A stretch of 63,968 bases of DNA, filler included, from Lenisia limosa (GCA_001655205.1; 11 parts of 11 records of this genome joined end to end with filler, not necessarily neighbours in it); one strand, 5' to 3'. Positions 2,532-63,968 are shown, counted from the whole stretch's first letter. Translations and numbers: made by a program. The notes: generated by a model from the sequence alone, not told the origin.

Positions 2532-2665
2532 CTGGGGGGGGGGGGGTAATTGGAAAATTAATAAAGTAAAAACAACCCAAAATCAACTCTTTAGGCTAAC
2601 AACACACAATGGTTGATAACAACAAAACAAATAAAGCCCAGGCCAGTCGATTCTGCAGCACCGCG
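2532..2665 (-). mobile_element. Family C intronic repeat (introner-like) forming a 3' splice site
   Basis: The minus strand reads ...gttgattttgggttg...ttttccaattaccccccccccccccag, followed by the open exon KRVFQLERSSDYYEITLDVNLACV. Confidence 0.65.
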
Positions 2666-2929
2666 GGGGTAAACTTGAAACTATGAAACAAACAAACACG
2701 AAAAAGCGGTAATAACGGGGGTCTAAAGCATGAGGAAGATGTGAGTAAAATTTTGGGAAAGATGGAGTAAGAGTAAGATGATCTAAAGCGTGAGGAAGTT
2801 AGGAGTACAATGAAAAAATTATGAAAAAAAAAAGCGAAATTAACACTGTAAATAAATTAAGTTGAAAAAAACCAAAATAAATACANNNNNNNNNNNNNNN
2901 NNNNNNNNNNNNNNNNNNNNNNNNNNNNN

Positions 2930-2941
2930 TTAATTAATTAA
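2930..2941. other. Artificial scaffold linker TTAATTAATTAA flanked by Ns
   Basis: Identical linkers at 2930, 7031, 10381, 23283, 26571, 33916, 51794, 56462, 58955 and 62329. The linker places stops in all six frames. Confidence 0.95.
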
Positions 2942-3269
2942 NNNNNNNNNNNNNNNNNNNNNNNNNNNNNNNNNNNNNNNNNNNNAAAACAAACAAAGCC
3001 CAGGCCGGTCGCTTCTGCAGCACCGCATCCCATCACTCCAGCGTAGTAAAAGGGGGAAATTAAACGTAAAGGATTAGCTGGTGATGGAGGGGATTGTTGG
3101 ATGCATACTGTATATGCTACGTACAAAACAAACCTTTCAACAACAGACCAAAGTTATATATCCCTACGGTCCGAAAAAGACCAGTGTTATCTCGATTCGC
3201 GGATTTATCGAGAAATTCAGCATATTTTGGGACAGTAATAACACCAACCTTTCAACGACGGCGGTGACC

Positions 3270-6200
3270 TCATTGAGCATTTGCTGCATTCGTTGCAACT
3301 CTTCAGCGTGGTGGTCCTTCGCCTGGGTTGTTAGGGGGTGGGGAGATCTGAAGTTTTATTGTATCTGCAAAGCAAAGCCATCAGTGATGCCTTTTACGAA
3401 GCGCTTCACTTCGGTCCGACAAAGACCAAAAAATACAGATAGTTTTTGGGGATTTATCGATAAATTCAGTCTTTTTTGAACCGAAGTGAAACATTACCTG
3501 TGTGTCCACAGATTTGATGATTAACAAAGGTTGCAAATTACCTCATTGAGCATTTGTTGCATTCGTTGGACCTCTTCGGCGTGTTGTTCCCGAGTCTGAA
3601 TGGTCAGGGGGGGGGGGGNNNNNNNNNNNNNNNNNNNNNNNNNNNNNNNNNNNNNNNNNNNNNNNNNNNNNNNNNNNNNNNNNNNNNNNNNNNNNNNNNN
3701 NNNNNNNNNNNNNNNNNNNNNNNNNNNNNNNNNNNNNNNNNNNNNNNNNNNNNNNNNNNNNNNNNNNNNNNNNNNNNNNNNNNNNNNNNNNNNNNNNNNN
3801 NNNNNNNNNNNNNNNNNNTCGATAGTTTCAGAGGATTTATTGAGTAGTCCAGTCATTTTTCGAACAAAAATAAAGCCTTAGTGGTATTGCATCCCATAGT
3901 CTATTATTGTACCCCTTGTGTAGTATACGATGCCCATCCACCTCGTCTTTCCACCTGTCGATTTCGAGGTCCCTTCTCGAGAGTCGCTCGTCTATACAGT
4001 AAAAAACAATTATACTATACCATACAGTGACTGGGATAAGTCTTGACCTGCAATCACATAGCAAATCGGTCAAGACTTATCTGGGTCAGGATCGATATAG
4101 TTATGTACCTTTACGACAATATTCTTCATTGAAATGTCCTTTGAACACAACCCCCCCCCCCCACTGAATTCATTGACGTCAAAAGTCATCCTGTTGATTT
4201 CGGAGTTCTAATTTGGTGAAAGAAGGTAGGAAAAAAAGCTGTTTGGCGAAGTCGTCCACGCCATCATGCTTTTGAAAGANNNNNNNNNNNNNNNNNNNNN
4301 NNNNNNNNNNNNNNNNNNNNNNNNNNNNNNNNNNNNNNNNNNNNNNNNNNNNNNNNNNNNNNNNNNNNNNNNNNNNNNNNNNNNNNNNNNNNNNNNNNNN
4401 NNNNNNNNNNNNNNNNNNNNNNNNNNNNNNNNNNNNNNNNNNNNNATATGACTTCTGCATTTCAGAAAGCTGCACGTCCTTCACCTTCACAGTATCTGAA
4501 AGATTATGTTATTATTCACAGTGTCTGAAAGAATAATTTATTCACTATCATATGTTTGAAAGATGGTGTTATTCATTATGTTTGAAAGCACGATTTTTTT
4601 TCCTCATGAAATATCGTGCTTGATCAAAATATATCACGATATAAAGAAAAAAAAAAAAATCTTTTCTGATCAAAAAAACAAGAACCAAAAATTGAATATG
4701 GACAAACCTTGACATTCTTTGAGCTGCTGAGACAATTCCGCTATCTTAGCCTGAAGGGTGAAAAAAGGGCATTTGCTTTGAAAAAGATTAAGCATGTTGA
4801 TTAAGGAAATGATTGTGTAGCAGGGTGCTTCATATCTTGTTGGTTTAGAAGCAATATTAGGCTTAATAAAGGACGAGTGCCCCTTTAATTGATAAATCAC
4901 CTCCGTCTCTCCGGATCGTGTGATGGTTTTCCCATATTGAAATAAGTGTGCTGTCACCAGCGATTCACTCTGGTACGAAAATTACCGGTAAAGTATCAAT
5001 GTTTATCAAGAAATTCCATCATTTTTCGTACCGAAGTGAACCCTCTCTCACCTTGGCCTGCTCATTTGCCGTCTGCAGCTGCTGAACAGCCGACGTCGCC
5101 CTTTCAGCCAGAGAAGCGTAGGCCTCTTTGAGATGGTTGATCTTTTTGACACTCGTGCTTTCGGCCTTGGCTTGGTCCTTTTTAATGTCGCCCTGAAGGG
5201 CCTTGGCGTGTTGGCGGAGCTCGGTGGCGTCGTCACGTGCAACTTGCGCAATGTGATTCGCGTGTTTGAGGTCTCTTTTAATGCGGTGCGCGTTATCCCG
5301 CGCAATACTGGCGTTTTGATGCGCAGCCTCCAGCTCATGTCGGGTGGCGACCAATTCTAGCCGAAGCTTTTCCGCTTCCGCCTGCGCATTTTTGTCGTTC
5401 CGAACAGCGGCGTCGAAATCGGCTCTGAGGGCAGCAAGGTCAGCTCTATACTGCCGTTCACGTTGAGCAGCGTTTTCAAGATTGCTGTGGTGGGCAGCTT
5501 CGAGGTCCTGGAGGGTTGTGACGAGCTCGGCTTGGATTTTATCAGACTCGGTTTTAGCGGACCGGTCGACTCTAAGAGCGTGTTCCAGTTCGGCTCTGAC
5601 AGCCACCAGCTCAGCTTCTGCGTTCTTCTCGTTCCTAACGGATTTGTCCAACAAGGACTGTAGGCTGGCCAAGTCGGCTTTGGCGTTCTTTTCGGCTCGC
5701 AGCGCCGAATCAAGGTCAGCGCGAATGCCAGAAAGCTCGATTTGAGCACTTTTTTCTCTTCGATTCGCGTTACTAAGGTCAACACGATGGCTGTCTTCTA
5801 ACTCCTGACGGGCACCGAGCAGTTCCGACCGCGCAGTTTCCGCCTCCACACGAGCCGCCTTTTCTCGTCGGGCCACCGACTGAAGGGCCTCGACCTGCGC
5901 CTGAAGACTTTTTTCCCTCCGTGCCGCGCAGTCAAGGTCGTGATCGCGACTTGATTCGAGATCTCGGCGCGAGTTTGCCAGTTCCGCTTGTAAGCTGTCT
6001 GCTTCGGCTTGCGCGTTCTTTTCGCTCTGGCGCGCATTATCGAGGTCGGACTGGGTGGTTGAGAGTTTGGATCTTAGATCGTTGATCGCTGCGTCCGCTT
6101 TCTGGATGGTGGCGGACAGTTCGGTTCTTAAGTCGGAAGCTTCGGCTCGAGCTGCTTCCGCTTCCGAGACCACTTTCTGTGTCGCCACACGGGCTTCTTC

Positions 6201-7348: not shown

Positions 7349-10150
7349 ATGTCAGGACTTATCGCGCTCAGTATAAAAAATCACCACCCCAGCAAAGCCA
7401 AGCGATACGATATTCTCGCCAAGATTATAGACAAAGTGCGTGAGAACAACGACGCTCAGCAAGCGGTCGAGTTTCTCTTAGCTGCCGCTTCGAAGGTTCC
7501 CGAGAGGCATCAGATCCGTTTGGAGTGCCAACAGGCTCTCGAGGCCATTTTTAAGAAGATGGAAGTAACTTTGGCATTCCAGCTAGCGTCGCAATTTCCC
7601 ATGTCCGAAATCCTACAGGACAGCCTTACGCCGTCTTTGGACTTTACTAGCGCCTCTCCTAGGGCTGAATTCGTCAAGAGTTTCTTAGAAAACAAATCTG
7701 CAAACCAGAAGTGGAGGGAGTACCTCACGTTTATGATTGTGAACTTCATCAACGGAACCAGTACTTCGTTAGAAGACGTTCTTAACAATCCCATAGTCGA
7801 TACGGTCATGTGCACTCCTATTAAGGCTCTATTGAAGCGGTTGGTGTCCTCATCATGGCTTTTTGGGCTATTAGGTGAATAACCGTACCTTTATTTTGTC
7901 TGACAATTTTCTCTGTTTAAGTTTTTAATTTTCTTTCATTTTAGCTTTCTTTGTCTTATCTCGCGTGTCCTTATTTTTTTTTTTTCAGTTTAGCTGTATT
8001 TATGTTTGAAACAATTTTGATATTTATTATTTATTTTTTTACCACTAAGATCAATCGCACCCGAGCGGAAGGTGGAACTCCAAAAAACAGCAACCCCCGT
8101 CCTCTCCTTTGTCACCAGCATTCACGAGAACAAAAATGCAATGCGACGCCTCAATGAAATACTTTACTGTGTTGGAATGAAAAAGATAGATTGGGAGGCT
8201 GTTCTCGGCCATTTTGACAGATACTCATCTCTGATTGCCGAATGGCGCGAGGCCGCTTTGGCGTTAAACGCATATATCACAACTATTTTACCCAATGCCA
8301 AGTTTATTCTTGAGGAGTTTGTTGAGTGTACCAATCCGCTTAGGGAACAGTCAATTGAAAAAGTGTGTGTCACTATTCAAACCGGAATCGAGCGCCTTAA
8401 TCACGGCAACGTTCTTCACTTTATCAATCTAAAAGATTCCACACTCTGGCCTAGTGAAGACATGAACCAAAGCGTTCGCCAGGTTCTTCTTCCGCATGAA
8501 AGCCACATTAATCTCGATGACGATATGGAGGAGGAAGAAGACAATAGCGGTGGCTCCATGTTTGACGGCGATGGTAATTCCGCCAAGATCAAGAAGATCT
8601 TAGAGAAGTCCATTACTACCTTCGAAGCAAATTGGCGGTTGTTGAATAAGGGCGAAATGGAGTATAATGTGGCTATCAAAGCGCTTTTGCACGAGGCTGA
8701 ACTTGATATTCTTGAGAAGTACAACCGTGGCCAGCGAAAGGCTTTTGAGAATAACTTCAATAAACTCAAGCACACCGCGATCGGCTACAACATGATGAGG
8801 ATCGCTCAAATGTGTTGTGATCGCTTGAGCTTCGAGAAGGCACAGCCGATCAATTTCGACCCCGATTCGAACATCTGCTTGTTGAAGTCTTCTGTGTCGG
8901 ATGCCTGTATTACTCTCGGTCAGTTCCCAATGCTGCACCCTCTTTTGGAGGAAATCGAGAGGTCCGTCACAATCGTCCCATTTTTACAGGTGAGGCTCTG
9001 GGAATTTAAAGTTAAAAACTAGTATAATAATGTCATATGTGATTGTATTCACATTTTGGGGGGGGGGGTATCATCAGTGAATGCTGGAGAGGCACACAGA
9101 AAGTTGTGTGTACACAAAGTTGTAAGGCAAATGAATTAATACTATGCAAAAATTCAATATCTCTTATCAGTATGATAGTGTGGACGGCTTCGGCCAGATA
9201 TTACAACCTTGTTTTTATTTTTCTCATTGCTATATCATATACATGTACATATGACTGATGCTGAAGGAAAACTATGAAAATCTTGTGAAGATTGACACAG
9301 TTGCTTCCACCTCGCATTACGACAGGCATATCCAAGGTTTGTGGCTGCTGAATGTATCACGCCCTACTTTTTCATCGAAATTTCCTTCATTTAGGTTTTT
9401 TTTGTTTCATCAATTTTCCAATTTTATAATCTGATTAGTACCTTTACGCCAATATTCTTCATCGAAATCTCCTTCGTTTTACCCCCCCNNNNNNNNNNNN
9501 NNNNNNNNNNNNNNNNNNNNNNNNNNNNNNNNNNNNNNNNNNNNNNNNNNNNNNNNNNNNNNNNNNNNNNNNNNNNNNNNNNNNNNNNNNNNNNNNNNNN
9601 NNNNNNNNNNNNNNNNNNNNNGACCAATTTGGCAGCTCAAAAAATGCTCTTCGTTCGACCAGTTTGTCACAGCTCTCCAACAGGTTTGAAAATAGGAACA
9701 GAACGCACCGTTCGATTTATACTCTTGAATATGCCCCTCTTCTCTCCAATAAATATGTTTGTAAATCTGAACTGGACGGATTGTTTCATAAAATTTCCNN
9801 NNNNNNNNNNNNNNNNNNNNNNNNNNNNNNNNNNNNNNNNNNNNNNNNNNNNNNNNNNNNNNNNNNNNNNNNNNNNNNNNNNNNNNNNNNNNNNNNNNNN
9901 NNNNNNNNNNNNATTTCATGAAATTTCCAATTTTATTCCCCTTAATATTGCCGTCATAATGCCCATTTTATTGTTTACTCAGGTTGCCCAAGACCGCGCA
10001 TTGAACGTCATGGAAGTTTGCCGAGCAATGAAGGAGGGAAATGGCTGCACTGATGTTGTGGCTCAACAGATGGACGAATTAGGAGTCAGAGGTACGCGGA
10101 TACAGTTTTTTTTTGGACAAGAGAAGTACATTGCATTTGAAATGTAGGCC
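7349..10150 (+). CDS. Large hypothetical protein(s), multi-exon
   Basis: ORFs of 177 aa and 316 aa, with a donor at ttacag|gtgagg (~8990). Further exons read MLKENYENLVKIDTVAS, AAQKMLFVRPVCHSSPTGLKIG and VAQDRALNVMEVCRAMKEG. No family recognised. Confidence 0.5.
9081..9230 (+). repeat. Family B structured intronic repeat
   Basis: gcacacagaaagttgtgtgt hairpin and ggcttcggcc hairpin, inside a predicted intron (~8990-9255). Confidence 0.75.
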
Positions 10151-12857: not shown

Positions 12858-12995
12858 CCCACCTGTATTGTCTTTCATATAGTATTAGTACTAGTATTAC
12901 ATAGAAACTTCAATACTGTGAGCCAATACTGTGAGCCACCTGTATTGTCTTTCATATAGTATTAGTACTAGTATTACATAGAAACTTTAATACTA
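12858..12995. repeat. Tandem duplication, ~77 bp x2
   Basis: ccacctgtattgtctttcatatagtattagtactagtattacatagaaact occurs twice in tandem. Confidence 0.85.
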
Positions 12996-17839: not shown

Positions 17840-17889
17840 AGATCACTATGTTAAACAAGATACACTGAGCAACATGTATCAAAGAGGAA

Positions 17890-20278: not shown

Positions 20279-21110
20279 ATGGTAGAGACGGAGGTAGTAT
20301 TCACAGATGCTATATCAAAGGATATCATTCCTCATTTTATCGAATCCCACACTCCAGCCTATCTCCTAAGGACCCTGAGACATGAAGTCACACACAACTA
20401 TGTTGTCAATTTTTATTCGAAAGCCTCCGTTGACCTTCTTTCAGGCGATAACGGTGACCACAATGATGTTGGAAAGTAAGGAACCTTGATTTCTTTGATA
20501 ATTATAGCGCAGTAGCGGAGATCTAGAATATGATTGTTTCATGACATTTCATACTTTAGGCTTCTGTTTATCTTGTTGAGCTTTTGAAGGCCATACACGG
20601 GTGCGAGTTTGAGAGACATGACCCTCGAAGACATATTGGGCTCCGATCTCAACCTTCATCGAGCCCGCATCGCCGACACGGATTGGGAATGCCATCAGGC
20701 CAGGCAACTTGCTGCACAGGGTGCCAATGACCTGGTTGATACGTTGTGCCCCTTAAGAATTATATGTAGTTCCTTTCACGCAGAAAGCTGTGTGCACAGA
20801 GTTGTAAGCCAAATTATTGGGTGAAATCGTATTATTATACTATATTTCTTCTACGTGTAATGGGGTGGGCGGATTCGGCCAGATAAAACCTTGTTCTTTT
20901 TGTTCATTGCTTTACAAATCATATAAGATGTACATGCCATAATCTGCCCCAAAGTAGTGCCTCCTAATATAAACGTCTTATTTTATTGTAGAATCCTATA
21001 TCGATACCTTATTTCCTTGACATCAACCTTCTTTTTCTTGATTTCTTTCCTTCGGGTAAGGTCAAAACAAAGCTGTCTTCCTATTATGTGTTAAAGTGAC
21101 TCTGATTAAG
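20279..21110 (+). CDS. Hypothetical protein, multi-exon, divergent from SerRS
   Basis: ATG ORF MVETEVVFTDAISKDIIPHF with a gtaag donor, followed by exons ASVYLVELLKAIH and DILGSDLNLHRARIADTDWE. Confidence 0.4.
20776..20910 (+). repeat. Family B structured repeat
   Basis: cacgcagaaagctgtgtgcacagagttgtaagcc...ggcggattcggccagata. Confidence 0.75.
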
Positions 21111-24050: not shown

Positions 24051-25629
24051 TGGGGGTACACTGTTTTCTGAGGGTTGGAGGGTAGAGTAGAACTGTCAAG
24101 CTCAGATTACACCGAAATCATTCACATTGGAATTTTGCGGAGACTTATAATTTTTACTGGTCTTTTGGGGAGCATTAACCGACCACCCCAATAGCCAAAT
24201 GGCTTCATATTCATATTACCTGAACGTATCGATTTAATCCAAAAATAACCCATTTTTACGCTGATATTTATAGTTTTGTTTATATTTTTTTTGCTTCTTT
24301 TTTTTTACTTTTTCGTTTGGCTTCATCCCCATGAATTTTTTTCCCAAGATTTTTTTCAACTTCTGGAAAAAAAACGAAAATCAAAAGAAAACCAAAAACA
24401 ATCAATCCCCCCACCCCCTTGATTGCTTTTGTTTCATTTCAAAAAAAACAGTTTCAAAAACAAGTTTCATTATGATCCAGGACTACCTCAAAGCAGTGGC
24501 CAAGAAGTCAGTTTCATGAATTCATGACGTCATAAATACCTCTTTAGTTTTGATGGTGAGGGGTTTAGATGTTTGTAGGTGACTTGGAATTCTTATGGAA
24601 AAGTTGTGTCCCCCTTTTGTTGTTTTCAATCTCATATAAACGATGGTGGGCAGTTTTGGTATACTGTAATAAAAGCTAGATAATTTTGAATATACCCTCC
24701 CGTTTGTTGGTTACAACCCTTGTGTTTTTTCCTTGGGCCAACGGATATGGATTCGATTTCATATTGTCCAATTTTACTGTTTGTATTTTGTTGTTCTCAA
24801 TTATCATGTTGTGCCAACAGAGAACGTTGGGCTTTTTGTGTTTTACTAATTTTCCCATTTTACCCATTCTTATTAAATGTTCATGGTTTAGCTCCCGCGA
24901 AGGCGTTCTGAAGCCTTTGTCTCTTTCTATTTATTAATGTACCGTATATCCAAAGAAAAACACTTAAAACATACACAATACCTAGAAACACCAAAAGAGA
25001 AATACACGTTGTTCCCAACCCTCGTGTGTTGTCAGTCAACAGAGTTGATTTTGGTTTTATTTTTGTTTCCAATCCAAGTTTGCCCCCCCCCCCCATGAGG
25101 TGTAGTAAACGTACAGTATTACCCCCTTTGGCCTACTTTTTTCAGTTGTTTAAAACTGTGTTTCAGGAGTTATAAATGGAAAACATATTGTGTTGTCAAC
25201 TCGCTGACTTATATAACATATAGTGTGGTTGTAACCCCGTCTGACATAATTATCATTAGTTTAAATAGTGTTGGTGGACTAAATACAATGAGAAATAAAT
25301 AAACAAGGCCGTATCTGGCCGAAGCTTAGCCAATCAACTCTGTTGGCGGACAACATACAAGGGTTGATAACAACAAAACANNNNNNNNNNNNNNNNNNNN
25401 NNNNNNNNNNNNNNNNNNNNNNNNNNNNNNNNNNNNNNNNTCCCGTTATTTTGTGAACCGAAATGAAGCCCTACCTACTACCTTCATAAATTGCCCAGTA
25501 TTCTCCTAAGTTCCTGTTTAAATTCTTTCAATTCTATAATCCCCAGTTTTCCTATGCCCACTCCAGGAGTGGGGGGGTAAAAAAGCAAACATTCAAATTT
25601 GATTGAATGTGATCCCCATTTGTTACTCA

Positions 25630-25980
25630 GTGGACCTGAAAGAAACATAAATGCAAACAAACACAATTCTACACCACGGCAGCATATTGTGAAACGTCCA
25701 GGGCATTTTCCCTGCTGTCGTACTTGCGAATGATGGCTTCGAAATCGACCAGGGCCTGATTTACGGTTTCCTTGGGGGTTTCGGGGAGAGGAGTGGGGGG
25801 ACGGATGTCTGGGGAGGAGAGTAAAAAAATTGGAAAATGTATGAAAAAAAAAAGAGCCCAAAATCAACTCTGTTGTCTGAGACACAAGGGTTGTTATGCA
25901 ATCACACCCCATACTGTAGAAATGGGTGGGGTTGACAGCCTTGAGCTCAGAGCGGGGAATACCGCACATGTTGACTAGGA
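25630..25980 (-). CDS. Hypothetical protein exons (partial)
   Basis: Exons LVNMCGIPRSELKAVNPTHFY and ETPKETVNQALVDFEAIIRKYDSRENALDVSQYAAV, separated by a GT-AG intron at 25809-25914. Confidence 0.45.
25809..25914 (-). mobile_element. Family C copy constituting an entire 106-nt GT-AG intron
   Basis: gtatggggtgtg...acaacagagttgattttgggc...ttttccaatttttttactctcctccccag. Confidence 0.7.
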
Positions 25981-26671
25981 AGGCGGATTCTGGGAAGGTG
26001 AAAAGAGTAGGATCTTAGTTAGGAAATGTGTGAAGGCCGTGTTCTCACCCCTTTTTATAATGATAATAAATGTAACATACTCTCCTATAATAGAGACATC
26101 ACTATCAATAGTACTCTACAGCCATTCTTCAAATCCCTATCATTATCAATATAACTCCACCTACCCTGGGACCAGCCGTCATTGCGGCAGTTTCGACCCA
26201 AAAGACCGCGGATTGCTTCAGCCCTGGACGGTGAGTTTTACTAGGACTATACGGTCCTAAAAAAGACCGAATTTCCCCGATAAATCCTCTATAAATATCG
26301 ATATTTTGACGGTCTTTTTCGACCGTACGGAAGCACTAATTATGAGGGGATGGCCCTCTCTCACACAATTCCAACTACATAATAGACTGTATTATACCCC
26401 CATATTACACCCCCCCACCGCAAAGCTCCGGGCTCCGCATGGCTCATAACCCAGGCAGCCCAGGCCGGGAGCCCTGCCAGTTCAAGCTGTTCGGCGAAGG
26501 AGTAGTGCAGGAGCTCAATTTGGGAGNNNNNNNNNNNNNNNNNNNNNNNNNNNNNNNNNNNNNNNNNNNNTTAATTAATTAANNNNNNNNNNNNNNNNNN
26601 NNNNNNNNNNNNNNNNNNNNNNNNNNCCCCCCCCCCCCCCGAGTAATGCGAATAATGCGAGTAATGCGAGT

Positions 26672-26825
26672 AATGGGACATGGTGCTTACTGCATAAGCG
26701 ACTGACCTGGGCTTGGTTGTTTTTTGTTTCACCTGTTTCCCAAATGTAAGCCAATAAATCTGGGGTTTTTTTCTCATCAATTTCCAAATTCACCCAGTGA
26801 TGGGATGCGGTGCTACAGAAGCGAC
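26672..26825 (+). mobile_element. Two abutting family C copies
   Basis: gtaatgggacatggtgc...aattcacccag runs directly into gtgatgggatgcggtgctacagaagcgac. Confidence 0.65.
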
Positions 26826-27597
26826 NNNNNNNNNNNNNNNNNNNNNNNNNNNNNNNNNNNNNNNNNNNNNNNNNNNNNNNNNNNNNNNNNNNNNNNNNNN
26901 NNNNNNNNNNNNNNNNNNNNNNNNNNNNNNNNNNNNNNNNNNNNNNNNNNNNNNNNNNNNNNNNNNNNNNNNNNNNNNNNNNNNNNNNNNNNNNNNNNNN
27001 NNNNNNNNNCCGCAATCGCTACAAGTTGCTGGAAACAGGCAAGCCGCTTAGTGACGCAACAGACGGCGTTTCCACCGCCGAACTACTGGCTCGTCAGCGC
27101 CTTTCGGTCAACAGACTCTCAGCTCCCAGGGTGGGGGTTGGGGTGGTTCTTGTATTTTCATCCTCCCCTTTTTTCTCCTTTTTTTTGAGGTTTCAGATTC
27201 AAAACTTGATACCAAATAGAAACTTGTTAATTATATCATATATTTCAACTATTCACCCCTTGCTAGTCCGGAGAGGGAGAAACCAAGCCGCGGCCTGTCA
27301 CCACCCGTCCTCCTTCCACACCCGAACTGCGCGGGTCAACTCCGTCTCCTGTGCAAGGTATGGGGATCAACACCTTCCGTTGTGCAAGGTATTGGGATAG
27401 GATGCTGGCTCTGTTGTATGATTCTCCAACAACAGCGTAACTTCAGCTTGGCACGTCACATTTCTAACTTCTATCTATCACAAATGCACATTTACGTCTT
27501 AGAAATCGTTCAAGCAAAGCGGCCGGCTCCAAAGAAATGTGGGCTCCCTTCGCTTTTATCGGGCATTATCCCATGCTTCATCCCGGGGTGTTATCCT

Positions 27598-37100: not shown

Positions 37101-40100
37101 CCCCCTAGATTTGATGAATGTTGCGTTCCCATCTTCGCAATCTTTCACCCCAAAATATGACGATATCTTCCAGCCGAACAAACCCCTTTTGGTATGTCTT
37201 AAAGGTATACAGTTTTTTCAGATGCTCTTAATTTTGGCTTTACTTAGCTTTATATTCCTTTTGGAACCGAACGGTCTGCTACTAGTTTAGTGAATTTTTT
37301 ATTTCTAGTTTAGTGTATTTTTTGGTAAATATACTAACTTACTAGCCTTTCTCGCAGCTCCTTTCAGTTCTTCCGCCGCTGTCAGCGCAATGTTTACCTA
37401 ATGAAGTTGCTGTGAGTTAAGGAGAAACATAAATAATGCTGTTATACAAGGTAAAAAAATTCACCATAAGGAACTGAGACAAAGCTGTGGTACTCACCTT
37501 GTTAGAAGCTCCTTACTGAGTCAACCCCTCTGAAGGAGTACTTTCCTGATTCGTTCAGAGTCATTGGTATGGCTAATTCTCGAAGTATAGCATTTAACAT
37601 ACCATATATATTTCGACATATTATGCTTTTCTCTGAAATTACAGTTTACCAGCCGATCTCCTCACAATACAATCAAGTATTATAAGAGGGCAGCAATATC
37701 CTAACGATGACCAGTATCTTCATGAACTGATCCAAAGTATTATTTTCTACCAACAACTACATATGATATTACTATGTATGTGTCATAGTATATTATATAA
37801 ATACCATATGATATATGCGTCAGTTCAATTTCCGGTTTTTTTGCAAGATCCGGTTTTTTTTTTTTAAGGTTTTTTTTTCTTCTATTTCTCATTTTGTTAA
37901 TTCTTTGTAGCACTCAAAGTCAAATTTTCAGCATTAAATTGCAAACCCAATCAAATTTCACTTGAAACAACCCCAACCTCAAGATTATAATCATAATTAT
38001 AATTATATTTTCCTTCATTCATCCTAACAAATATCAAGACATCATGGTGATAAACACGTCTCAATCTTGGCGAAGAAGAGCAGCACGAGTGTTTCTCTTG
38101 TGTTCTACATGAGATAAGCAGACTTGCTCAGATTTACATACTGATAACTGGGGCAGTTGGGAGTGCAATGGTTGGGCCTTCACTGAAATCAGATTCACTA
38201 GAGTCGGAGTCATCAAAGTCTAAAACTGTGATGCAGAAAATGGCAAACTACCATCTTTATCGGAATCGGATTCAATTGCAATGACAGCTTCTTCAGCCCC
38301 CTTTTCTTCTGTTTCTTCATTGCTTGAGAACACATTTGCTGAAGAGATAACACATCAAAAGTTTTTCATACTCAAAATGTCAAAGTCGGGATTACGAGCT
38401 GCTTCTCCTCTCCCTCTTCCTCTTCCCCGTCCTCTTCCACGGCCTCTTCCACGGCCTCTTCCTCTTCCTCGAGCGCCTCGTGTAGCACGCATTTCTGACA
38501 TCAACTAAGCAGTTATAAAGAATAAAATAACCCACAGAGAGTTGTTTCAAGAATATTTTCATCGCTGTCAGAGCTGCTGGCATTTGCTTCTATGTTTTCT
38601 AAGTTCGTAAGGGTGACAATATAAGACACACACACCTTTTTGAATTTCGGCCATTCCTGGACCTCTTCCATGGCGGCCATGGCCTCTTCCACGACCTCTT
38701 CCATGCCCATTTCCACGTTTAGTTCCTGGATAGTAGTGAATCAGCGCATACCCTGGGTCTGCTTTCTCAATACAGCAGGAGCGCCACCAGTGGCATGAAT
38801 CGCAGAGGATTAAGAACCACACCGTCCTTATTTTCCAGCTTGGCAGTCCGCATCTTCCTCTGCTTCAATTCCTCTTTCCAGACAACAATCTGTCCATCCA
38901 GCTTCTCGACCACAGGGACGCCAGGCGTTGCCCAAATACTGCTCTGGTCAAAACGTCCAGTGTCGGGCATTTCAAATATCTTGTCGCAGTGAAGAGATGG
39001 ACCAAAATGGACCTCAGAAACGAGTTCTCCTGCCTATTTTGCGCTTAAAATATCAACTTGAACCTTAGAATTGCTTAACTTTAAAAAAGGGTCTGGAAAA
39101 GTAAAAAGTTTCCACAAAGGCAAAATCCTGGGGTATAAGGTGAATTTTTTAAAAAAAACCGGATCTTGCAAAAAAAACCGGAATTGAACTGACATATGAT
39201 ATATATGATATATTATATCATATACATACCTAATACTATATGATCATATGTACTAGTAATAATACATACATATCATTATATTATATACTATGTGTAATAT
39301 ATGTCTTCTCAGTAGCTCAGTAGCTTGAATGTATTGATACCACAGCTGATCTCTTTGATCGGAGCTGGAGAGACATCCCTCTATTGCCTTTCGTCGACAC
39401 CAAGAAAGTGGCCCAGGCAGTCAATGACGTCATGCCTTTGGTGGGTCTCGCGATTTTCATCCCACCTTATATTTCTCGTCCCCCTCCCCCTCCTATGATA
39501 AGGTCTCATTTCTTAAATAGCTTGCCGAGCCGATTCAAAAGAGAAACTCCCATGGAACTAACAAAGTTGCCTTTTCCAGGTCGGTTGAGACCCTTCTCTT
39601 TAACAACAGAAATGTTGTCTTGTGCTCTTCACTCGCAGTGTTTCCTCCATGATCACAATTTAGCCACGCAATTGGACAAGAGGTGGCGTCGGTCGTGGAA
39701 ATGTGGAACCTTCCCCAAGCACAAGCACAGTACGAGGGCTCAGTAGAACCTAACCGTCACAGGTTTTTTGAGCTGAGCCTCCCAACATTCTCTGCAGAAT
39801 CTGAAGCCTCCAGATGCATCATCCCTCAAGCCTCAAGACCAGGCGCCTGGGGTGGGTGTTGCCATCTCGAATGGAATCAATCAGACTCGTCAAAATAATA
39901 AATGACAGAGGGAGGGAAATCCATTTGTTTTGGTGATCCGCCAAGGTTTCCCATCCTTCATGCCACTCCGGCATATTGGAGCCTTGACGAAAGTTGCTGG
40001 CATGGGAGAAGACTTCATTGACATGCTTGAGGTGTCCCCGGTTCCCGAGGTTGGTTGCCTACACCGGAGGGATTTCTGATAGAATACGTACCAGATTGTA

Positions 40101-49099: not shown

Positions 49100-51420
49100 G
49101 GAGGCGAACCTCTTGTAACAAGCTTCAGGGGGGCTTTAAACCTGCTCTTTCATCTTCAGCAATTATCTGGCAGTTCACATGAAGCATTGAAGATCAGTTC
49201 ATAATACATTAGACATAGACGAAGAAAGACAAGAAAATTTGAGATAAATAGGTTAGAGGCCGAGCTCATTCATGACGTCATCGAAATTGGTGGTTTGCAG
49301 CATGGACTAAACGCATTAGTAGACCCACTGATTAAGATAAAAAAAAAGACAGACGCAAAAACAATACATCACCAGGTGCCTCCTACCGCATCATTGACAA
49401 CGGGCTGGGCTGCCATTGGGCCTAATGAATGTAAAAATGGGAAAAGTGTGTTATCGTTATTAGGCAGCCCCCCACCGGTCGGATACATGTTCATATTCTG
49501 CATAGCCATAGGAGGAGGCATTTGGTTTGGTGGGGGTGGCTGCGGCTAAGGGGGTGACGGCGAAAGCAAAAACCATGGGGGATCTGATGATTGTTTCAAA
49601 AAACAACTCAAAACACAGAAAAGGTGTTTGGTATTATTCCAAGGATTAACACGATGCTTTTGAGATTGAGAAACTGGTGACCTCCTCCTCCCCACAGTTC
49701 CGTAGAAGTTGGACTGCTGTTGTTTCATCTGCTCATCTGCCACTGCGTTTTTCAGGGCCTGTAAATTTAGAATCTGAAATTCAGAGTACTATTGGAAAGT
49801 TAAAAAGTGACCCAAAGACAAAAGCAAAGAAAAGATTACGCAAATAATTTGAACAGTGCATAAAATACCACATAAGGCTATGAGGGAATATGATGGAACA
49901 GGACCCACATCAGCAAAGTTGAAGCCGTCGCCGTCCATGTTCACGGTGTCTACTCCAATGGAGGCAAACTGGCCTTGGCCCATCATGTTGTTGGCGTTGG
50001 GCATGGCATCCGCTGCAAGGTGAGTCATGCTTTTTATTGCACAGCTTTAGTGCAACAAATCCAAGATATTAAACGGAGTATGATGATAAGATTGCGTATG
50101 ACTTAAACTTTCTGTATTGCATGATTCATAATAAGACATCACAGTTCATTTTACTGATATTCCATCAAAATGGGTGAGATTTGACTATTGGAAAAATCTT
50201 CAAGAGATTTCAACAACGACTCACCTCCAGTGTGCTGCGGGTGGGCTGCAGCTTCGCGCTGAATAGTCAAAATACGGGGAAACGGGACAGGTTTAATATG
50301 TTGTATAAGTCCAACACTTATCATGCTTAAAAGGATATCTGTGTTTAATGTAACTCAGTCATGATGACAACGCGATGTGTACCTGGAGACGTTCCATGTT
50401 CTCATACTGGTCCCACAGCTGTCGGATCTTCATTAGATTGTACTCTGACTCCTACACGACATAACGGGACGAAAAGAAAGAAAGAAAAGATGATTCTGTA
50501 TAGCCTGAAAAGCAAAAAATATCTCCATAGCTATGACTAAGACCCACTTGTTTGGTAACATACTCCTGCATCTGCTGCATACACATCTGTTGGAATTGCT
50601 CGTTGCCAGGTTGTTGCATCATTTCCTGAGGATATAAACCCCCAGTTCAAATGCAAAGATTTAACAAAAAAACCCACATATTTTGGGCTTTACATTGGTT
50701 CGAAATAGACCGGTAAAATATCGATGGTTTTCGACGATTTATTGAGAAATTCAGTCTTTTTTCAAACCGAAGTGAAGCCCTACATATGTATTGTATTCAT
50801 TCAACGAACTGTGGGGAAGGGTAAATAAACTGAAGAAGTACCCCTCCCCCCCGTACCTGCTGTTTGGATTGTCTGAATTGGTTTCTCTTTGCCATGCAAT
50901 CCTGCTCGAATTGGCCCAATTCTTGCTGATGTTGACTCACCAGTGCCTATATTGTCAGGAGGGAAGTAAACAAAATATGCGAGAGCTTAAAAAACAAAAC
51001 AAAAACAAAGCCTCCCGCAGATTCAGGATCTGACAAACGCAAAAGCATCATTCACCAATTCTTTGGGAACCAATGGAAGAAGCCCCTTGNNNNNNNNNNN
51101 NNNNNNNNNNNNNNNNNNNNNNNNNNNNNNNNNNNNNNNNNNNNNNNNNNNNNNNNNNNNNNNNNNNNNNNNNNNNNNNNNNNNNNNNNNNNNNNNNNNN
51201 NNNNNNNNNNNNNTCGGGAGGCTCACACTGAGCGCGCTGGGCTTGCTGGACAATGAGGACAAAGAAGCGGATTCTAAAGATGAGACCCGGGATAAGATAG
51301 GTTCAAAAGCCCCTCCCCCCACCGGGCCGGTGACACTCTCCATTTGGCCGACACGTTCCATCTTCTGTAGCATAGCCTGCTGCTTCTGCTCAGCTCGCCG
51401 CATGGCCTTAGGGGTCAAAA
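49100..51420 (-). CDS. Hypothetical Q/M-rich protein(s), multi-exon
   Basis: Exons PQEMMQQPGNEQFQQMCMQQMQEY, ESEYNLMKIRQLWDQYENMERLQ, RFPRILTIQREAAAHPQHTG and ALKNAVADEQMKQQQSNFYG with GT donors. Confidence 0.4.
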
Positions 51421-51849: not shown

Positions 51850-54800
51850 CCTGCTGGCACTCCCAGGATCGGATTCTTCGCGTTGCTTCAAGACCGTCCA
51901 TAATCGGCATCTGGCAATCCTGGGAGGGGGGTGAAATTGGCACATTTATGAAACAACCTGGGGGGGTGAAAAGAGGGGATTTCGCAACACTCCGGAGGGA
52001 GAGGGGTAAAACAATTTCGATGTAATATTGGCGGAAAAAGGCAAAAATGATAAAAATAATAATAAAAAAATAATAATAATAAAAAAAAAANNNNNNNNNN
52101 NNNNNNNNNNNNNNNNNNNNNNNNNNNNNNNNNNNNNNNNNNNNNNNNNNNNNNNNNNNNNNNNNNNNNNNNNNNNNNNNNNNNNNNNNNNNNNNNNNNN
52201 NNNNNNNNNNNNNNNNNNNNNNNNNNNNNNNNNNNNNNNNNNAAAAATGACGTCGAAAGGACGTAACTGGGTAACGGCCGATTTGAACGTATTGAGAGCC
52301 TCCTGTCCATCGTCTAATTGGGGGGAAAGTGAATTTAGCGTGTGTGTTGGCTCGAATATTCCCAAGGACGTGTAAGAAACTCCGAAAACAGCAAGGAAAT
52401 AAGATCTCACCCCACTCATAAGGGACGAAATTTCCCAATAAATTCTCGAAAACTGTCGATATTATACCAGGCTTACTCGTGTATTATACCAATGAGAAAT
52501 AATAATAAAAAAAACAAGGTTGCATCTCGCCGAAGCCTTCCACACCATCGCGTTGATATAGATACTGAACGTATCTCGTGGATTGTACTCCCCCCCCCCC
52601 CNNNNNNNNNNNNNNNNNNNNNNNNNNNNNNNNNNNNNNNNNNNNNNNNNNNNNNNNNNNNNNNNNNNNNNNNNNNNNNNNNNNNNNNNNNNNNNNNNNN
52701 NNNNNNNNNNNNNNNNNNNTGACTATGTTGTCTTCGACAAGAAGTACGCGGGCAATGCTGCGTTGGATTCCAGCCTGAACACAGGTTAAGGGGAGATTTG
52801 ATAGAGATAAGAGGGTTATTTGACAAAGAGGGGAATTGAAATATCACATAATTTTTGCCCTTGAAACAAGTAGTATAGTAAGACATTGCACCGTCCGCCC
52901 ACTTTCCCCTTTGCGGTCTCGAGGCTTCCAGAGGATGTGCGGATGTGCTCGGGTTTCTCATTAATCCCTTCTAGCCTTCCACTTTTGCTCCGGATGCTAC
53001 AGGGCGTAAAGGTACTAATCAGGGGGGAGAGTGAAACGGAAATTTTATGGAAGGGAAAATTTATGAAACAAAACAGCCCAGAATCAACTCTGTTGGCTAA
53101 AAACACACGAGAGTTGAATACAACGAAACAAATCACTCCAAAGCACATTGATTGTTTTTGAATGGTAAAACAAAAGAGAGAAGCAAAACCCGTACAGTGA
53201 CCGGGATAAGTCTTGACCGATTTGCAATATGAAAATCGGCAATACTTTTCCCGGTCACTCTAAGATGTGGTAATATATCTATATATGTATCAATTTTTTT
53301 TTGAAACGAGAGAATTAAATGTATATATAGCTACATGTATATATAATTATATAAAATAATAAATTAGAAAAATAGGAAAACAAAAAAAAAATACATAGGG
53401 TTACCATAAACAAATCCGTCCCCTCAAGGGGGCATTGTATTGATATATAGTGGGGTGATTAGTTTTTGCGTTCATTTGTTTCCTCCCCCCTCCCCCTCTT
53501 GCGGTTCGTCGCAGTTTGATATACATATACATATACATCAATACAAAACCTCCCCCTCTAACCTTGAGGAACTGACAGACGGGCTCATGGGATTTCCAAA
53601 TATGGGTGTCGAGGGATATCGAGCTAGTGACACAGGGTGGCTTCGGGGGGTGCGCTGGGGAGGGGGGGATGAATATTTATGAAACAACAAAAAAGCCCAA
53701 AAACTCTGTTGGCTGATAACACACATGCAAATATGGTATACTATCTTATCAATATCATATAGAGTACCTTCTGGGGGGTCTGTACCAGCTGTAGGCACGA
53801 TTTAGCATCGGCAATGGTGGGGGGAGAGGCAACCACGTGGGTCAGGCCCGCAGAGCCGACTTTTCGCATCAAATTCTGGAGCTGGGGGAGCGTGATATAT
53901 TTGTCAAAAACAAAACAACAACAACAAAAAAAGAGCTGGGAGCTGAGGGGGTGAGATGTTAAGAGCTGGGGGAGGTTGGATTTCAGGAGGGAGTATGAGG
54001 ATGAGGGTGGCAGAGAAAAATTGTATTTTTTGTCTCCCTAATATTGATTTCATAGATTTGTTATACAGTGACTGGGATAAATCTTGACCGATTTACCTTG
54101 AGAAATCTCATAGCAAATCGGTCAAGACTTATCACGGTCAGTGTATACATATATCCTATGGTAGTAACCCCCCCCCACATCCATATAAGTTGTAAGGCAA
54201 ACGAAGGTCACTGAACGCAGCACCAATCGTTTCAAACACTCATCTTCCTCCGCCAGTTCGGGAGCTCTGGTGACTGCGGGAAGGAAGGTGAAATTAGCTT
54301 GTTGTTACGTGTAATGAGACTTCCTTTCTTTGTTCGGAGTTATGGTAATTTGTTTATGGTATCCTTATGTATTTATTTGTTTCCCAAGATTTTTAATGTA
54401 CATTATTTCTTTTGTTCAAAAAATAACAAAAAGGCCCAATTGTCAGTTACTACTGCACCCCCCCCCCACGNNNNNNNNNNNNNNNNNNNNNNNNNNNNNN
54501 NNNNNNNNNNNNNNNNNNNNNNNNNNNNNNNNNNNNNNNNNNNNNNNNNNNNNNNNNNNNNNNNNNNNNNNNNNNNNNNNNNNNNNNNNNNNNNNNNNTT
54601 TCTTTTATGTATGGAGGGTTCTGGCAGCCACTGTAGTGCGGGTGAGGTGGTCCACCAAACTCGGGTCTGGGGAGGTGGGTAAAATTGGACATATTTATGA
54701 AACAGAAAAGCCCAAAATCAACTCTATTGGCAGGCAAAATTAAGAGTATTGAAGGAACAATGCAAAGACATCAACAAAATAGGCACAGATATCAAGCGAA

Positions 54801-56330
54801 AACATGCATAGATATCAAGCGAACATGCCCACCACCCAACCTGGAGAGTAATTTCCTGTTCCGAGAGCCATTTTTCGAAGGCGATGGCAGTTGGAAATGC
54901 CAGGGGGCTGAAAAAAGTTACAGTGGGAAATGCAAGAGGGCGGAATAGAGTCAAAGTGGGAAGTACAGGGGGGCTGAATAGAGTCACATGTTACAGATGC
55001 GCGCGAATTATACTTCTATTAATCATGATTATTATAAGGAGATAAGAAATAAAACCAATATACTACCTACTCCAATATAATATGGTATACAGAGACAAAA
55101 AGATCATTATTTTTATTATCATTATTTCGATGAATTAGGTGAATTAACACAAACTCAGTATCTCTTATAACCATAATGGTGTGGACGGCTTCGGTCAGCA
55201 ACCTTATTTTGTATTGCTCATCTCTCGATATTTTACCAGTCTTTTTCGAACCGAAGTGAAGCCCTAAGTCTCACAGACACTTTTCCCCAATCCCCCACCA
55301 GACGCCAAGACGAACAAGTGTGTCAAATAACGAGGCCACCAGCAGAACGTTACTCCCGATTACGACATGACAGAGGTCCGTGTCAAATGACCTGGGTTAA
55401 TGAATTAATCATATCAGTTTTTGGACCATTTTTAACGTGTGAAAAATGAATTAAATTATCTCTCTCTCTCTCTGTGTGTATGTGTGTGTGTGCGTGATTA
55501 TAATATGTCTCTCTCTGTGTGTGATATTAATATGTCTCTCTGTGTGTATGTGTGATTACAATATGTCTGTGTATGTATGTGTGTATAGGGACACTAGGGG
55601 ATATGGGTTAACATACATGGGTGAATCTGGAAGAGAAAGCGCGGTCAAGCCATTTCGCAGTGAAGCCATATGTGAAGAATGCGTGGAGGATAAACTCGCT
55701 GGAGTGAGTGGCGAGATAGGGGTGACGGGAGTAATGGGATGAGGAGACGCTGAAGACGCTGAAGTGGCTGGTGTAAGACTTTGAGCGGCTACTGTCACGC
55801 GAACTGCGAATGTCGTGCCTTTGTTGGGGGTAGAGGCTACAGCTACGGAACCGCCCATAACTTCGGCCACTGTTCGGACTATCGCCAGGCCTGGGAGGGG
55901 GGGGGGGAGGTAAAATTGGAAAATTTATGAAACAGAAAAAATCCCAAAATCAACCCTGTTGGTTGACAACACATGATGGTTGATAAACACAAAACAAACA
56001 AAGTCCAGGTCAGTCGCTTCTGCAGCACCACATCCCATCACTCCAGATTTAGGGATTCCCCACGGTCCCCAAAAAGACTGAATTTCTCGATAAATCCACT
56101 TTAAATATCGATATTTTACCGGTCTTTTTCGGTCTTCAAGGAAGCTCTAGTAATTATGCATATTAAAATGAATACGAGTACCCCAAAAAGCGATATTTTC
56201 AGGTGAACCTACCATACTAGGAAGGTTTATCAAGAAACACAACAAAAAATAATGGTATTCATATCACCGCCCTACCTAATCCGGTTCCTCCATACTGCTG
56301 CGTGATTTCAGCGCCGCATTGCTCAAACTA
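51850..56330 (-). CDS. Hybrid histidine kinase (HATPase_c + receiver), partial
   Basis: ITQQYGGTGLG|LAIVRTVAEVMGGSVAVASTPNKGTTF (G2 box); receiver ARVLLVEDNIV..DDGQEALNTF..FDVIF..DCQMPIMDGLEATRRIRSWE. Confidence 0.9.
53195..53260. mobile_element. Tc1/mariner-like MITE
   Basis: TA|CAGTGACCGGGATAAGTCTTGACC...CCCGGTCACTC|TA. Confidence 0.7.
54066..54143. mobile_element. Tc1/mariner-like MITE
   Basis: TA|CAGTGACTGGGATAAATCTTGACC...GGTCAAGACTTATCACGGTCAGTG|TA. Confidence 0.75.
55891..56045 (-). mobile_element. Family C full-length copy supplying the 3' splice site of the HATPase exon
   Basis: gtgatgggatgtggtgctgcagaagcgact...ttttccaattttacctccccccccctcccag|GCCTGGCGATA (G-LAI). Confidence 0.75.
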
Positions 56331-61814: not shown

Positions 61815-61937
61815 TGGTGCAGAGGTAGACTTCCCATTTGTGATGCTAATAGATGGTGCAGAGGTAGACTTCCCATTTGTGATGCTAATAGATGGTGCAG
61901 AGGTAGATTTCCCATTTGTAATGCTAATAGATGGTGC
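61815..61937. repeat. 39-bp tandem repeat x3
   Basis: atggtgcagaggtagacttcccatttgtgatgctaatag repeated with no spacers. Confidence 0.9.
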
Positions 61938-62384
61938 GAGGGAATGCTATCGATTCTCCACCGATGCTATTATGTTTGGTTCGCCTCACTGGTACCGAGT
62001 TGATAAGATTGTCTCTACTTGTGCACAATGGACAGATCCACTTCTGCTTTGGGAAAGTTGAGTGGGAGCGAAAAGAAGGAGGTCCGAGAAAAAGGATAGC
62101 ATAAAGAGTAGGTGGCTGAATCCCTGCCATCCAATGACACAAATGAGCATTCAAAAAAAAACGAATAGACAAAATTGCTGGATAAATGGATAAAGTGAAC
62201 CCAACGCACATTTTCCAGGTGATGAGAACGCGGCAATGCTGGACCGACGGCCGCCCTTAATAAGCCTTGCGTAGTGGGGGGTGCNNNNNNNNNNNNNNNN
62301 NNNNNNNNNNNNNNNNNNNNNNNNNNNNTTAATTAATTAANNNNNNNNNNNNNNNNNNNNNNNNNNNNNNNNNNNNNNNNNNNN

Positions 62385-63968
62385 GAGGAAGCATCCAAGG
62401 CTATTGGCCACATGCCCCTCATCATGTTCTTCCCCCTTGGTAGGTGGGGGGAGCGGTTGCTCACCCACAAAAAGAAGCAAATTATTTGTGCGTGAGCAGC
62501 CACAGCCGGTGGCTGATATCATTTGCAATTCGCTCTTCTTACAAAGTTGTCTCTCCCCCTGTTCCAGTACTTGTTAATTGCTGTATTGTATTGTATTATT
62601 CTTGTTTTTTTTATATTCTTTCTTCGGATTGAAGAGCGTATTATTGGCAACTTTTGTTTTTGCTTTTGTTCATGCGTTGCGTGTGGAAGTACCGGCATCA
62701 CCCCCGCTACAGAAACGACTGTCCTGGGTTTTGTTTGTTTTATTATAACTCTCGTGTGTTGTCAGCCAACAGAGTTGATTTTAGGCTTTTTTTTGTTTCA
62801 TAAATTTTCTAATTTACNNNNNNNNNNNNNNNNNNNNNNNNNNNNNNNNNNNNNNNNNNNNNNNNNNNNNNNNNNNNNNNNNNNNNNNNNNNNNNNNNNN
62901 NNNNNNNNNNNNNNNNATTTTCATTTGCATTTAGTGATCTTTGTTCTGCAAATCACCTTCTTCATCTACTGGATCTTCATTGCAATGTATCTTGTCACGT
63001 CGTCTGAGCCTACCTACTCCAAGGTCTGCGGGAAGACAAGAGGGCTGCCAAAAAACTAATATTATTGTAATAAACCTGTATTCTATTGTTTGTTTTGAAA
63101 TGAGCCAAGTATTCGATTTGGACCAATCCACAGTTCTGCTTTTTTTTTATTATTCTGCAGATCCCTGGAAGAGAAGATCAATTTGAGAGCTATGAGACCG
63201 GTGGGAGGAGGTGGTGACAAGTCTTCTTCTTTTTGCCACTATTCTCTTTCAGATTGAACTCTTTCATATTTGCAATCTCAATTCACACATGTGTAGTAGA
63301 TTTTGTTATTATATCAATACCCTTCCCCTTTATTAACACTGCGCGAATCTCACACGTGTTAGGAGACCACCTGAGACGCATGCAGATCTACCACTTCTTC
63401 GGTCTTCTTTGGACCAACCAGGTGCGTGTTTGTCAGCTTCGTTACTATGTGATGTTTGTTGCCTTCGGTACTATGCTGCATGGATTGGTGTTTGCTGTCT
63501 TTTTTTTTGTTTTGCTTGTTTTTCCTATGCTAGGGAGACACGATGCTGCTGAAGCGACTGGCCTGGGCTTTTTTTTTGTTGTTATTATCAACCCTCGTGN
63601 NNNNNNNNNNNNNNNNNNNNNNNNNNNNNNNNNNNNNNNNNNNNNNNNNNNNNNNNNNNNNNNNNNNNNNNNNNNNNNNNNNNNNNNNNNNNNNNNNNNN
63701 NNNNNNNNNNNNNNNNNNNNNNNNNNNNNNNNNNNNNNNNNNNNNNNNNNNNNNNNNNNNNNNNNNNNNNNNNNNNNNNNNNNNNNNNNNNNNNNNNNNN
63801 NATTGGTGTAGAGGTCCTAATCACCAACCAAATAATCTGAAACTCCAAACAAACAGAAACAACTGTATAGACTTGAAACTGACTCTCCGCAGGTACCACC
63901 TCGGTTCCATTGCCTTCGGTTCCCTCATCATCGCCATTGTTCAGTTCATCCGTGCCGTGATCAAGTGG
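62385..63968 (+). CDS. SLC44: Choline transporter-like protein (CTL/SLC44 family), partial
   Basis: EEASKAIGHMPLIMFFPL; VIFVLQITFFIYWIFIAMYLVTS; MQIYHFFGLLWTNQ; YHLGSIAFGSLIIAIVQFIR. Confidence 0.88.

Follow-up and report, generated by a model that had tools for sequence, protein, structure and literature searches.

The window analyzed here, that is, the whole stretch of 63,968 nt of Lenisia limosa DNA (GCA_001655205.1), harbors a short repeat, family C, that is shaped like an intron: it begins with GT and ends with a branch-like motif, a C-run, and AG, and one of its copies is spliced out of RNA exactly at both of its ends. On a tentative reading, to which we assign a probability of roughly 0.45, family C is an abundant, decayed, and likely mobile intron-shaped repeat that forms one RNA-confirmed whole intron, likely provides five longer introns with their acceptor, and has a likely route of spread that is coupled to splicing or transcription. 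The repeat itself, its GT start, its motif, C-run, and AG end, and the exact splicing of that one copy are established here; mobility, the takeover of acceptors, and the route are inferred. Family C works like an introner in one case. The observations of an earlier, sequence-only reading of this DNA mostly hold; its headline of an introner-like repeat goes too far on the unrelated genes and on the 5′ ends, and acceptor capture, its secondary idea, is the more distinctive feature.

The window consists of 11 pieces joined by artificial linker and contains many internal gaps; its 59,633 called bases are eukaryotic and rich in introns. Two public runs of one study cover part of it: run X1 is RNA, and run X2 behaves as DNA. 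Four further repeat families of the same window, A, B, D, and E, are described below, where they serve for comparison.

Shape and Abundance of Family C

At E<0.01, an iterated profile search of the whole window finds 17 copies of family C, compared with zero in the reversed sequence that served as the control; an 18th copy is a 29-nt 5′ piece starting at 26797. The claim of a repeat family with about 15 copies of 100-150 nt is thereby confirmed. The full-length consensus measures about 143-145 nt, starts with GT, and closes with a TTT(T/C)AC-like (TTTYAC-like, branch-like) motif, a C-run, and AG. The copies are 53-93% identical, mostly 53-82%, to the best one, at 55891, and this spread suggests that the family is mostly old. 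The highest value, 93%, belongs to the 5′ piece at 3036, followed by 81% for the copy at 2532 and 79% for that at 62707, with 58-67% for the copies in a histidine-kinase gene.

The 18 copies sit in 7 of the 11 pieces, with none in the two longest pieces (30 kb), and they are clustered, as five occur in one 4.5-kb gene piece and five in a 3.2-kb piece. Such clusters would be expected if acceptor regions had been duplicated or homogenized within genes by slippage, tandem duplication, or gene conversion, so that one old insertion spread to neighboring introns, and duplicated acceptor-like stretches unrelated to family C are indeed present at 2700-2800 and 54908-54960. However, the kinase-gene copies are no closer to one another than to copies elsewhere (58-67% identity to the 55891 copy versus the 93%, 81%, and 79% given above), and the DNA run points to genome-wide dispersal; local copying is therefore regarded as quite improbable. 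In that run, 4554 records align to the 2,057-base stretch 24470-26526, which holds five family C copies and two family A pieces, and the consensus lines of loose ends there extend family C sequence; therefore, these data point to roughly thousands of copies in the genome. The summed depth of 148,264 on one family C copy, compared with about 28 on unique DNA, is only a hint at the order of magnitude, as summed depth does not equal copy number. The RNA run contributes 13 records against the 4554 of the DNA run, and since its contigs cannot show absence, this difference is not taken as evidence that mature RNA lacks the repeat.

By placement, one of the 18 copies is a whole intron. Five others make up no more than the 3′ part of a longer intron, and four of these five share a single gene. 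A further two finish about 26-27 nt before the AG is reached, and another is upstream of it by about 117 places. Two lie beyond the RNA-covered parts, and for four an end is missing because of a gap or the end of a piece. Sixteen of the 18 could be assigned to genes, eight in number.

A Copy That Is a Whole Intron

The following features concern the whole-intron copy.

25809-25914, minus strand: whole-intron family C copy of 106 nt, GT to AG, with an internal deletion of about 36 nt; placed by an RNA junction
25668-26526, minus strand: Nup96-like gene that contains it (Pfam Nup96, E=3.8e-5, on an exon upstream of the copy)

RNA contig 4 of run X1 aligns in four pieces (25680-25808, 25915-25989, 26165-26222, and 26418-26526), and the junction 25808/25915 places splicing exactly at both ends of the copy, so that the complete GT-AG intron proposed from the sequence is borne out by RNA. 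Its first 21 bases agree with the family C 5′ end at 17 of 21 positions, a score of 17 compared with at most 11 for 13 other donors and one reached by 8 of 2000 shuffles; by this comparison, the 5′ end of the intron is homologous to that of family C. The copy is flanked by a 3-nt direct repeat, with ACA on both sides. An AG duplication at 25914 was considered and ruled out, as the frame would shift by one base. It was also observed that with this intron retained, a frame at 25487-26014 (minus strand) stays open for 176 codons, beyond the normal stop; it has no Pfam match and is probably open by chance.

Copies That End Longer Introns

More often, a family C copy is found at the 3′ end of an intron that begins with other sequence.

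51850-56327, minus strand: hybrid histidine-kinase gene with HATPase_c and Response_reg Pfam matches, host of the first four copies below
55891-56041, minus strand: best full-length copy, making up the final 151 nt of the 385-nt intron 56275 to 55891 and ending in the intron AG; by reading frame
54667-54739, minus strand: 3′ half copy ending the 174-nt intron 54840 to 54667; by open frame
53655-53727, minus strand: 3′ half copy ending the 113-nt intron 53767 to 53655; by open frame
51920-51956, minus strand: 37-nt 3′ fragment whose AG directly precedes the receiver-domain exon; two other acceptor-like modules are stacked in front of it
2532-2664, minus strand: 5′-truncated copy with its AG end before an open exon; by open frame
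53024-53143, minus strand: 5′-truncated copy in the histidine-kinase gene piece, ending about 27 nt before the likely AG 52997 and followed by a family E fragment; by open frame

The AGs at 2532, 25809, 51920, 53655, 54667, and 55891 are all present as the sequence-only reading had them, the one at 25809 being an acceptor confirmed by RNA and the other five likely acceptors placed by reading frame. The joined frames are open for these five and restore a kinase motif at 55891 and a receiver motif at 51920. The same reading spoke of splice sites supplied in unrelated genes, which was an overstatement, as the six acceptors lie in three genes and four of them in the one histidine-kinase gene. Joining 56275 to 55891 gives the frame QYGGTGLG/LAIVRTV, with HATPase_c (E=3.2e-5) on the downstream exon, and the exon after 51920 matches Response_reg from residue 1 (E=0.0029). 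The 55891 copy had been described as the 3′ part of an intron spanning 55891-56272; that role is likely, but the donor is 56275. The GT of this copy is internal, 234 nt from the intron donor, and the intron upstream of it contains a miniature inverted-repeat transposable element (MITE) as well as about 115 nt of unique sequence. The first 40 nt of the 53767 intron bear no relation to family C, and in the three introns that end at 53655, 54667, and 55891 the donor is unlike the family C 5′ end (scores of -4, 4, and 4). Directly upstream of the 2532 copy is a weak match to an older 3′ end (2665-2694, E=1.4).

Among the 13 visible family C 3′ ends, seven finish in AG straight after a pyrimidine run and six do not. 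The chance of a pyrimidine run ending in AG is 10.6-15% in the window, giving P = 1.5e-4 to 1.3e-3, and family C is thus significantly tied to acceptors. The proposal that copies enter introns already in place and capture their acceptor fits more of the data than the headline claim does, with five terminal and two near-terminal copies against one whole intron.

These introns might instead be the remains of an old, ordinary introner burst, in which whole copies landing in exons made every family C intron, while insertions and deletions that came afterwards made the introns longer and exchanged their 5′ parts. The one whole-intron copy, the wide divergence of 53-93%, and the presence of other repeats upstream of family C copies in the same introns are compatible with this, and fungal elements are described as degenerating in both sequence and length (PMC3609843). 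However, if the element had made these introns, its GT should still be their donor; the 5′ ends that are best preserved (28-29 of 29 bases) are off the placed donors, that at 56041 by the 234 nt mentioned above, and the three donors scored above do not resemble family C. An old burst is accordingly considered improbable.

Some further observations concern acceptors in general. Stacked or duplicated acceptor-like modules occur at intron 3′ ends at 51920-52030, 2665-2860, and 54908-54960, all on the minus strand, and some are unrelated to family C. Longer introns (e.g., those with donors 26418, 55298, and 62440) often start with a G-run and end with a C-run, judged by eye, and many assembly gaps start at these G-runs and C-runs. 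The acceptors of the short introns in the long pieces are mostly T-rich, also by eye; faint family C remnants in those introns were ruled out, as the reversed control has about as many weak matches (10 against 9). A stwintron at 55891 was ruled out as well, since the base after the AG is needed for a Gly codon.

Remaining Copies and Their 5′ Ends

The remaining copies and their host genes are as follows.

1906-2060, minus strand: copy in the 5′ part of an intron, with the likely donor GT at 2060 (donor score 6, within the range of other donors and not family-like)
2986-3036, minus strand: consensus-like 5′ part (29 of 29 bases) after pyrimidine-rich, acceptor-like sequence, cut by the piece end
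26670-26825, plus strand: head-to-tail pair with a spacing of 127, the older copy at 26670-26797 and the younger at 26797-26825, then a gap
24704-24865, plus strand: two tandem 5′-truncated copies inside intron 24556-24891; by RNA contig 1
25008-25094, plus strand: partial copy with a C-run end lacking AG, between two converging genes beyond the RNA-covered parts
25332-25380, minus strand: central fragment adjoining a family B fragment, between the same converging genes
62707-62817, plus strand: near full-length copy inside intron 62440 to 62934 (joined frame FFPL/VIFVL)
63535-63599, plus strand: 5′ half copy in an intron farther along the gene that hosts the 62707 copy, its 3′ end lost in a gap
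62385-63968, plus strand: choline-transporter-like gene (Pfam Choline_transpo), host of the two preceding copies
9392-9424, plus strand: 33-nt 3′ fragment with a family E piece on either side, within an intron of the following gene
near 8021-9019: dynein-heavy-chain-like gene, an Atlas lead (family in 59-66% of cluster members)

RNA contig 1 joins 24554 to 24891, with a one-base ambiguity, and the AG of this plus-strand intron lies 26 nt beyond the second of its two sense copies. As the intron is downstream of a stop codon in all three frames, it belongs to the 3′ untranslated region (UTR). The 62707-62817 copy does not provide the acceptor of its intron; that acceptor follows about 117 places later, on the other side of a gap. 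The reading frame would allow a 7-nt micro-exon following the 1906 copy, in which case this copy might be a second whole intron.

The three most consensus-like 5′ ends of the family (28-29 of 29 bases) are those at 56041, 3036, and 26797. The sequence-only reading correctly saw that intact 5′ ends start with GT, but its positions of 26672, 26799, and about 56045 have to be corrected to 26670, 26797, and 56041. None of the three most consensus-like ends is a placed donor, and each is preceded by acceptor-like sequence, which is intron-like at 3036 and the AG of the older copy at 26797; that the intact ends at 3036 and 56041 follow such sequence supports our reading. At 26797, the final AG of the older copy shares its G with the GT of the younger one, which retains 28 of 29 consensus bases. 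The start of this near-consensus copy right at the AG of a 65%-identical older one is more in keeping with insertion than with tandem duplication.

Proposed Route of Spread

A splicing-coupled route, which we take to be the most likely, could operate as follows. An excised copy would be reverse-spliced into a pre-mRNA, or into the displaced DNA strand (R-loop) of a transcribed gene, and then copied into DNA. Landing in an exon would create a new intron, as may have happened at 25809-25914. More often, the copy would land on a resident acceptor or right next to one, and the branch region and AG that it brings along could then take over. The GT would then be unused and the 5′ half free to erode, which could leave 3′ half copies and the stacked ends seen at 26797, 2532, and 51920. 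Reverse splicing would explain the sense strand, the ends on splice sites, and the absence of inverted ends.

A more specific version holds that the element homes to existing 3′ splice sites: it would insert repeatedly on the AG of resident introns, its own older copies included, so that branch and acceptor are replaced genome-wide and intron creation is a minor outcome. We consider this version rather unlikely.

Several observations weigh against a splicing-coupled origin. A whole intron is found in only one of the 18 copies, no fold better than that of shuffled sequences was obtained for any of five family C copies (z -0.46 to +0.88), and C-rich acceptors are also present in introns that lack family C. 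The ACA repeats around 25809-25914 suit DNA transposition better than reverse splicing, although a single case is weak evidence (about 1 in 64 in a fixed register). In addition, the base before the GT is A in all five family C 5′ ends and in none of 13 other donors (12 G, 1 T), and two copies share CTGGA upstream of the GT, so the element may extend beyond the GT or may prefer such targets; clean reverse splicing would not give such an extension. The authors of a survey also conclude that most introners move as DNA (PMC9860276).

These observations lead to the main and close rival, which is a distinct possibility: a non-autonomous element mobilized as DNA inserts widely and selection filters the result. 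Sense copies in the middle of an intron would hijack splicing, and therefore the survivors would be those at intron ends, with the 3′ end co-opted as the acceptor and the whole-intron copy arising only now and then as a side product. In line with this explanation are the ACA repeat, the A that precedes the GT in five of five ends, and the CTGGA common to two, as are the two copies outside the RNA-covered parts, the one about 117 places from its acceptor, and the clustering of copies in repeat-rich pieces. Of target-site duplications (TSDs), which the earlier reading had proposed to look for, the one candidate is the ACA on both sides of 25809-25914; the flanks of the 55891 copy contain no matching duplication, which speaks against such an element, and the other flanks are lost or eroded. 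Strand and terminal structure, considered next, bear on the same choice.

Strand and Comparison with Other Repeat Families

All 16 gene-assigned family C copies are in the sense orientation, in all eight genes (P=3e-5 by copy and 0.008 by gene), in agreement with the earlier statement that nearly all are sense; RNA gives the host strand of three copies, and Pfam, Atlas, or an open frame gives that of the others. The other repeat families of the window provide a comparison.

Family A, 15 places (e.g., 27597-27699, 50683-50783, 56049-56149): palindromic MITE-like repeat of about 100 nt, with GGGC termini and TA flanks, which we take to be Harbinger-like
Family B, 14 places (e.g., 1341-1487, 9093-9250, 20777-20935): non-palindromic intronic repeat of about 160 nt, used as the strand control
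Family D, 4016-4089, 29246-29341, 53191-53269, and 54061-54147: palindromic MITE-like repeat of about 85 nt, with CAGTG termini and TA flanks, presumably Tc1/mariner-like
Family E, 570-629, 4100-4157, 9432-9488, and 63802-63823, with fragments near 53012 and 52030: repeat of about 60 nt with a TTTTAC-like motif and a C-run end, as in family C

Against a splicing-coupled route, nine of the 11 assignable family B copies (of 14) also lie on one relative strand, with the T-rich strand sense (host strands judged by eye from frames), and the skews of families C and B do not differ clearly (Fisher P=0.16). Because family B is skewed too, the sense bias of family C is weaker evidence than it looks; a bias of the T-rich strand, or selection, could give the pattern. 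Family E ends like family C and yet occurs on both strands. The bias is therefore compatible with a transcription-coupled route without showing such a route. The similar skew of family B, and the abundance of the MITE-like families A and D in the same introns, also suit an element that moves as DNA and is filtered by selection; antisense intronic copies of such an element, however, should not harm splicing, and none is found among the 16. Family E ends 5 nt before a likely acceptor at 570 and adjoins family C copies at 9424 and 53024, and it may share a mobilizing system with family C. Family A, like family C, is very deep in run X2.

Hallmarks of Mobile Elements

No terminal inverted repeat (TIR) of at least 7 nt was found at the ends of four full-length family C regions, with only about five G/C pairs predicted between the ends, and the tail is a C-run rather than poly-A, as the earlier reading had held on both counts. 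Families A and D, in the same introns, have clear long TIRs, and the lack of one in family C argues against a DNA-mobilized element, as does the lack of a transposase match among the 100 stop-free frames of at least 88 aa in the window. The search of these frames, which also covered reverse transcriptases and was negative for both, followed the suggestion to look for an autonomous partner, and is a weak test because exons are short.

Short interspersed nuclear elements (SINEs) have a head derived from tRNA, 5S, or 7SL RNA and an A-rich tail. Family C lacks these hallmarks of SINEs and of non-long-terminal-repeat (non-LTR) retroposons, as there is no Rfam match at the gathering score in the window and the tail is the C-run.

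Searches for relatives elsewhere were also negative. An exact 23-nt family C motif does not occur in the JGI metagenome contigs. An 18-nt motif matched 51 metagenome and 6 viral stretches, but these matches were rejected as chance, since with the motif masked none of the 57 fell below E=0.15 against the family profile; no family C homologue was thus found in the metagenome or viral contigs. The 18-nt motif has no occurrence in the full-text literature library, and three family C motifs are absent from 12 of the 14 supplement files of PMC12130899 (13 and 14 being left out) and from the single file of PMC9860276, the introner sequences of these surveys being deposited in an outside repository.

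Other Observations in the Window

Exact or near-exact direct duplications of 59-60 nt, which are possibly assembly artefacts, occur at 33972-34031 and 35844-35903 and at 12859-12917 and 12936-12994, one of them at the very start of a piece. An inverted pair of about 105 nt, 82% identical, lies 1.3 kb apart at 37758-37861 and 39151-39252; it surrounds a low-complexity minus-strand frame inside a longer plus-strand gene and could be the ends of an inserted element. An RPL17 exon in the window has its best matches at 58-67% identity; neither these nor searches of PDB and Atlas placed the lineage.

Significance and Comparison with Known Systems

Family C bears on the origin of new introns and on the question of whether any introner moves through RNA. 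With roughly thousands of copies, whole-intron and acceptor-end insertions, and matching DNA and RNA runs at hand, it would allow RNA and DNA routes to be compared through counts of copy ends, strands, and duplications. Should acceptor capture be what mostly happens, it has been missed by design in surveys that require both boundaries, and intron ends could be replaced wholesale while intron positions do not move. Should the element home to 3′ splice sites, it would be a mobile acceptor replacer in thousands of copies and a large natural test set for reverse splicing. Should it be only a filtered DNA element, family C would be an ordinary case of repeats co-opted as splice sites.

A recent survey defines an introner family by at least four introns in non-paralogous genes with similarity that reaches both boundaries and does not enter the exons, secondary insertions being filtered out (PMC12130899). 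Family C provides similar sequences at many loci, with 18 copies and 16 of them in eight genes; of the 18, one reaches both exon-intron boundaries and five just the 3′ boundary, and in four an end is missing. The number of such introns is thus one within the 64-kb window, for a definition that is genome-wide, and precise splicing is seen for that same copy (junction 25808/25915). The pipeline of that survey would discard the other copies as secondary insertions. The description of family C as introner-like is accordingly upheld for the one copy, by RNA and 5′ homology, and for the shape of the element, with its GT and its branch-like motif, C-run, and AG, and it is tentative for the family as a whole, with one whole intron in 18.

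The introner elements (IEs) of Micromonas pusilla, IE-A and others, are similar to family C in being repeated, intron-shaped, sense-only elements with nested or merged copies and a proposed reverse splicing or R-loop route (PMC3879977; PMC4540971). Degenerate remnants inside older introns and near UTRs are a further likeness (PMC3879977). There are also differences: most Micromonas copies are whole introns at unique positions, compared with one of 18 here, a comparison made by description. Their remnants have lost both splice sites, whereas partial family C copies keep, and likely supply, the acceptor. Fungal introner-like elements (ILEs) share the lack of TIRs, the many copies, and the decay in length and sequence (PMC3609843), and are described as having neither TIRs nor TSDs (PMC9860276); they are, however, near-identical whole introns with stable predicted folds, unlike family C with its single whole intron and 53-93% identity. 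MITE-type introners of Symbiodinium, Chrysochromulina, and Aureococcus carry splice sites, and a short duplication may supply them with an additional codon (PMC9860276), as ACA may have done at 25809-25914, but they have TIRs and TSDs, whereas family C has no TIR and a duplication at that one copy only, not at 55891. About 72% of introner families cannot be classified (PMC12130899). Secondary insertions of repeats into pre-existing introns (PMC12130899; PMC3609843) resemble most family C copies, which lie inside longer introns; unlike such insertions, family C is concentrated at the acceptor, its ends coincide with AG far above chance, and one of its copies is an entire intron.

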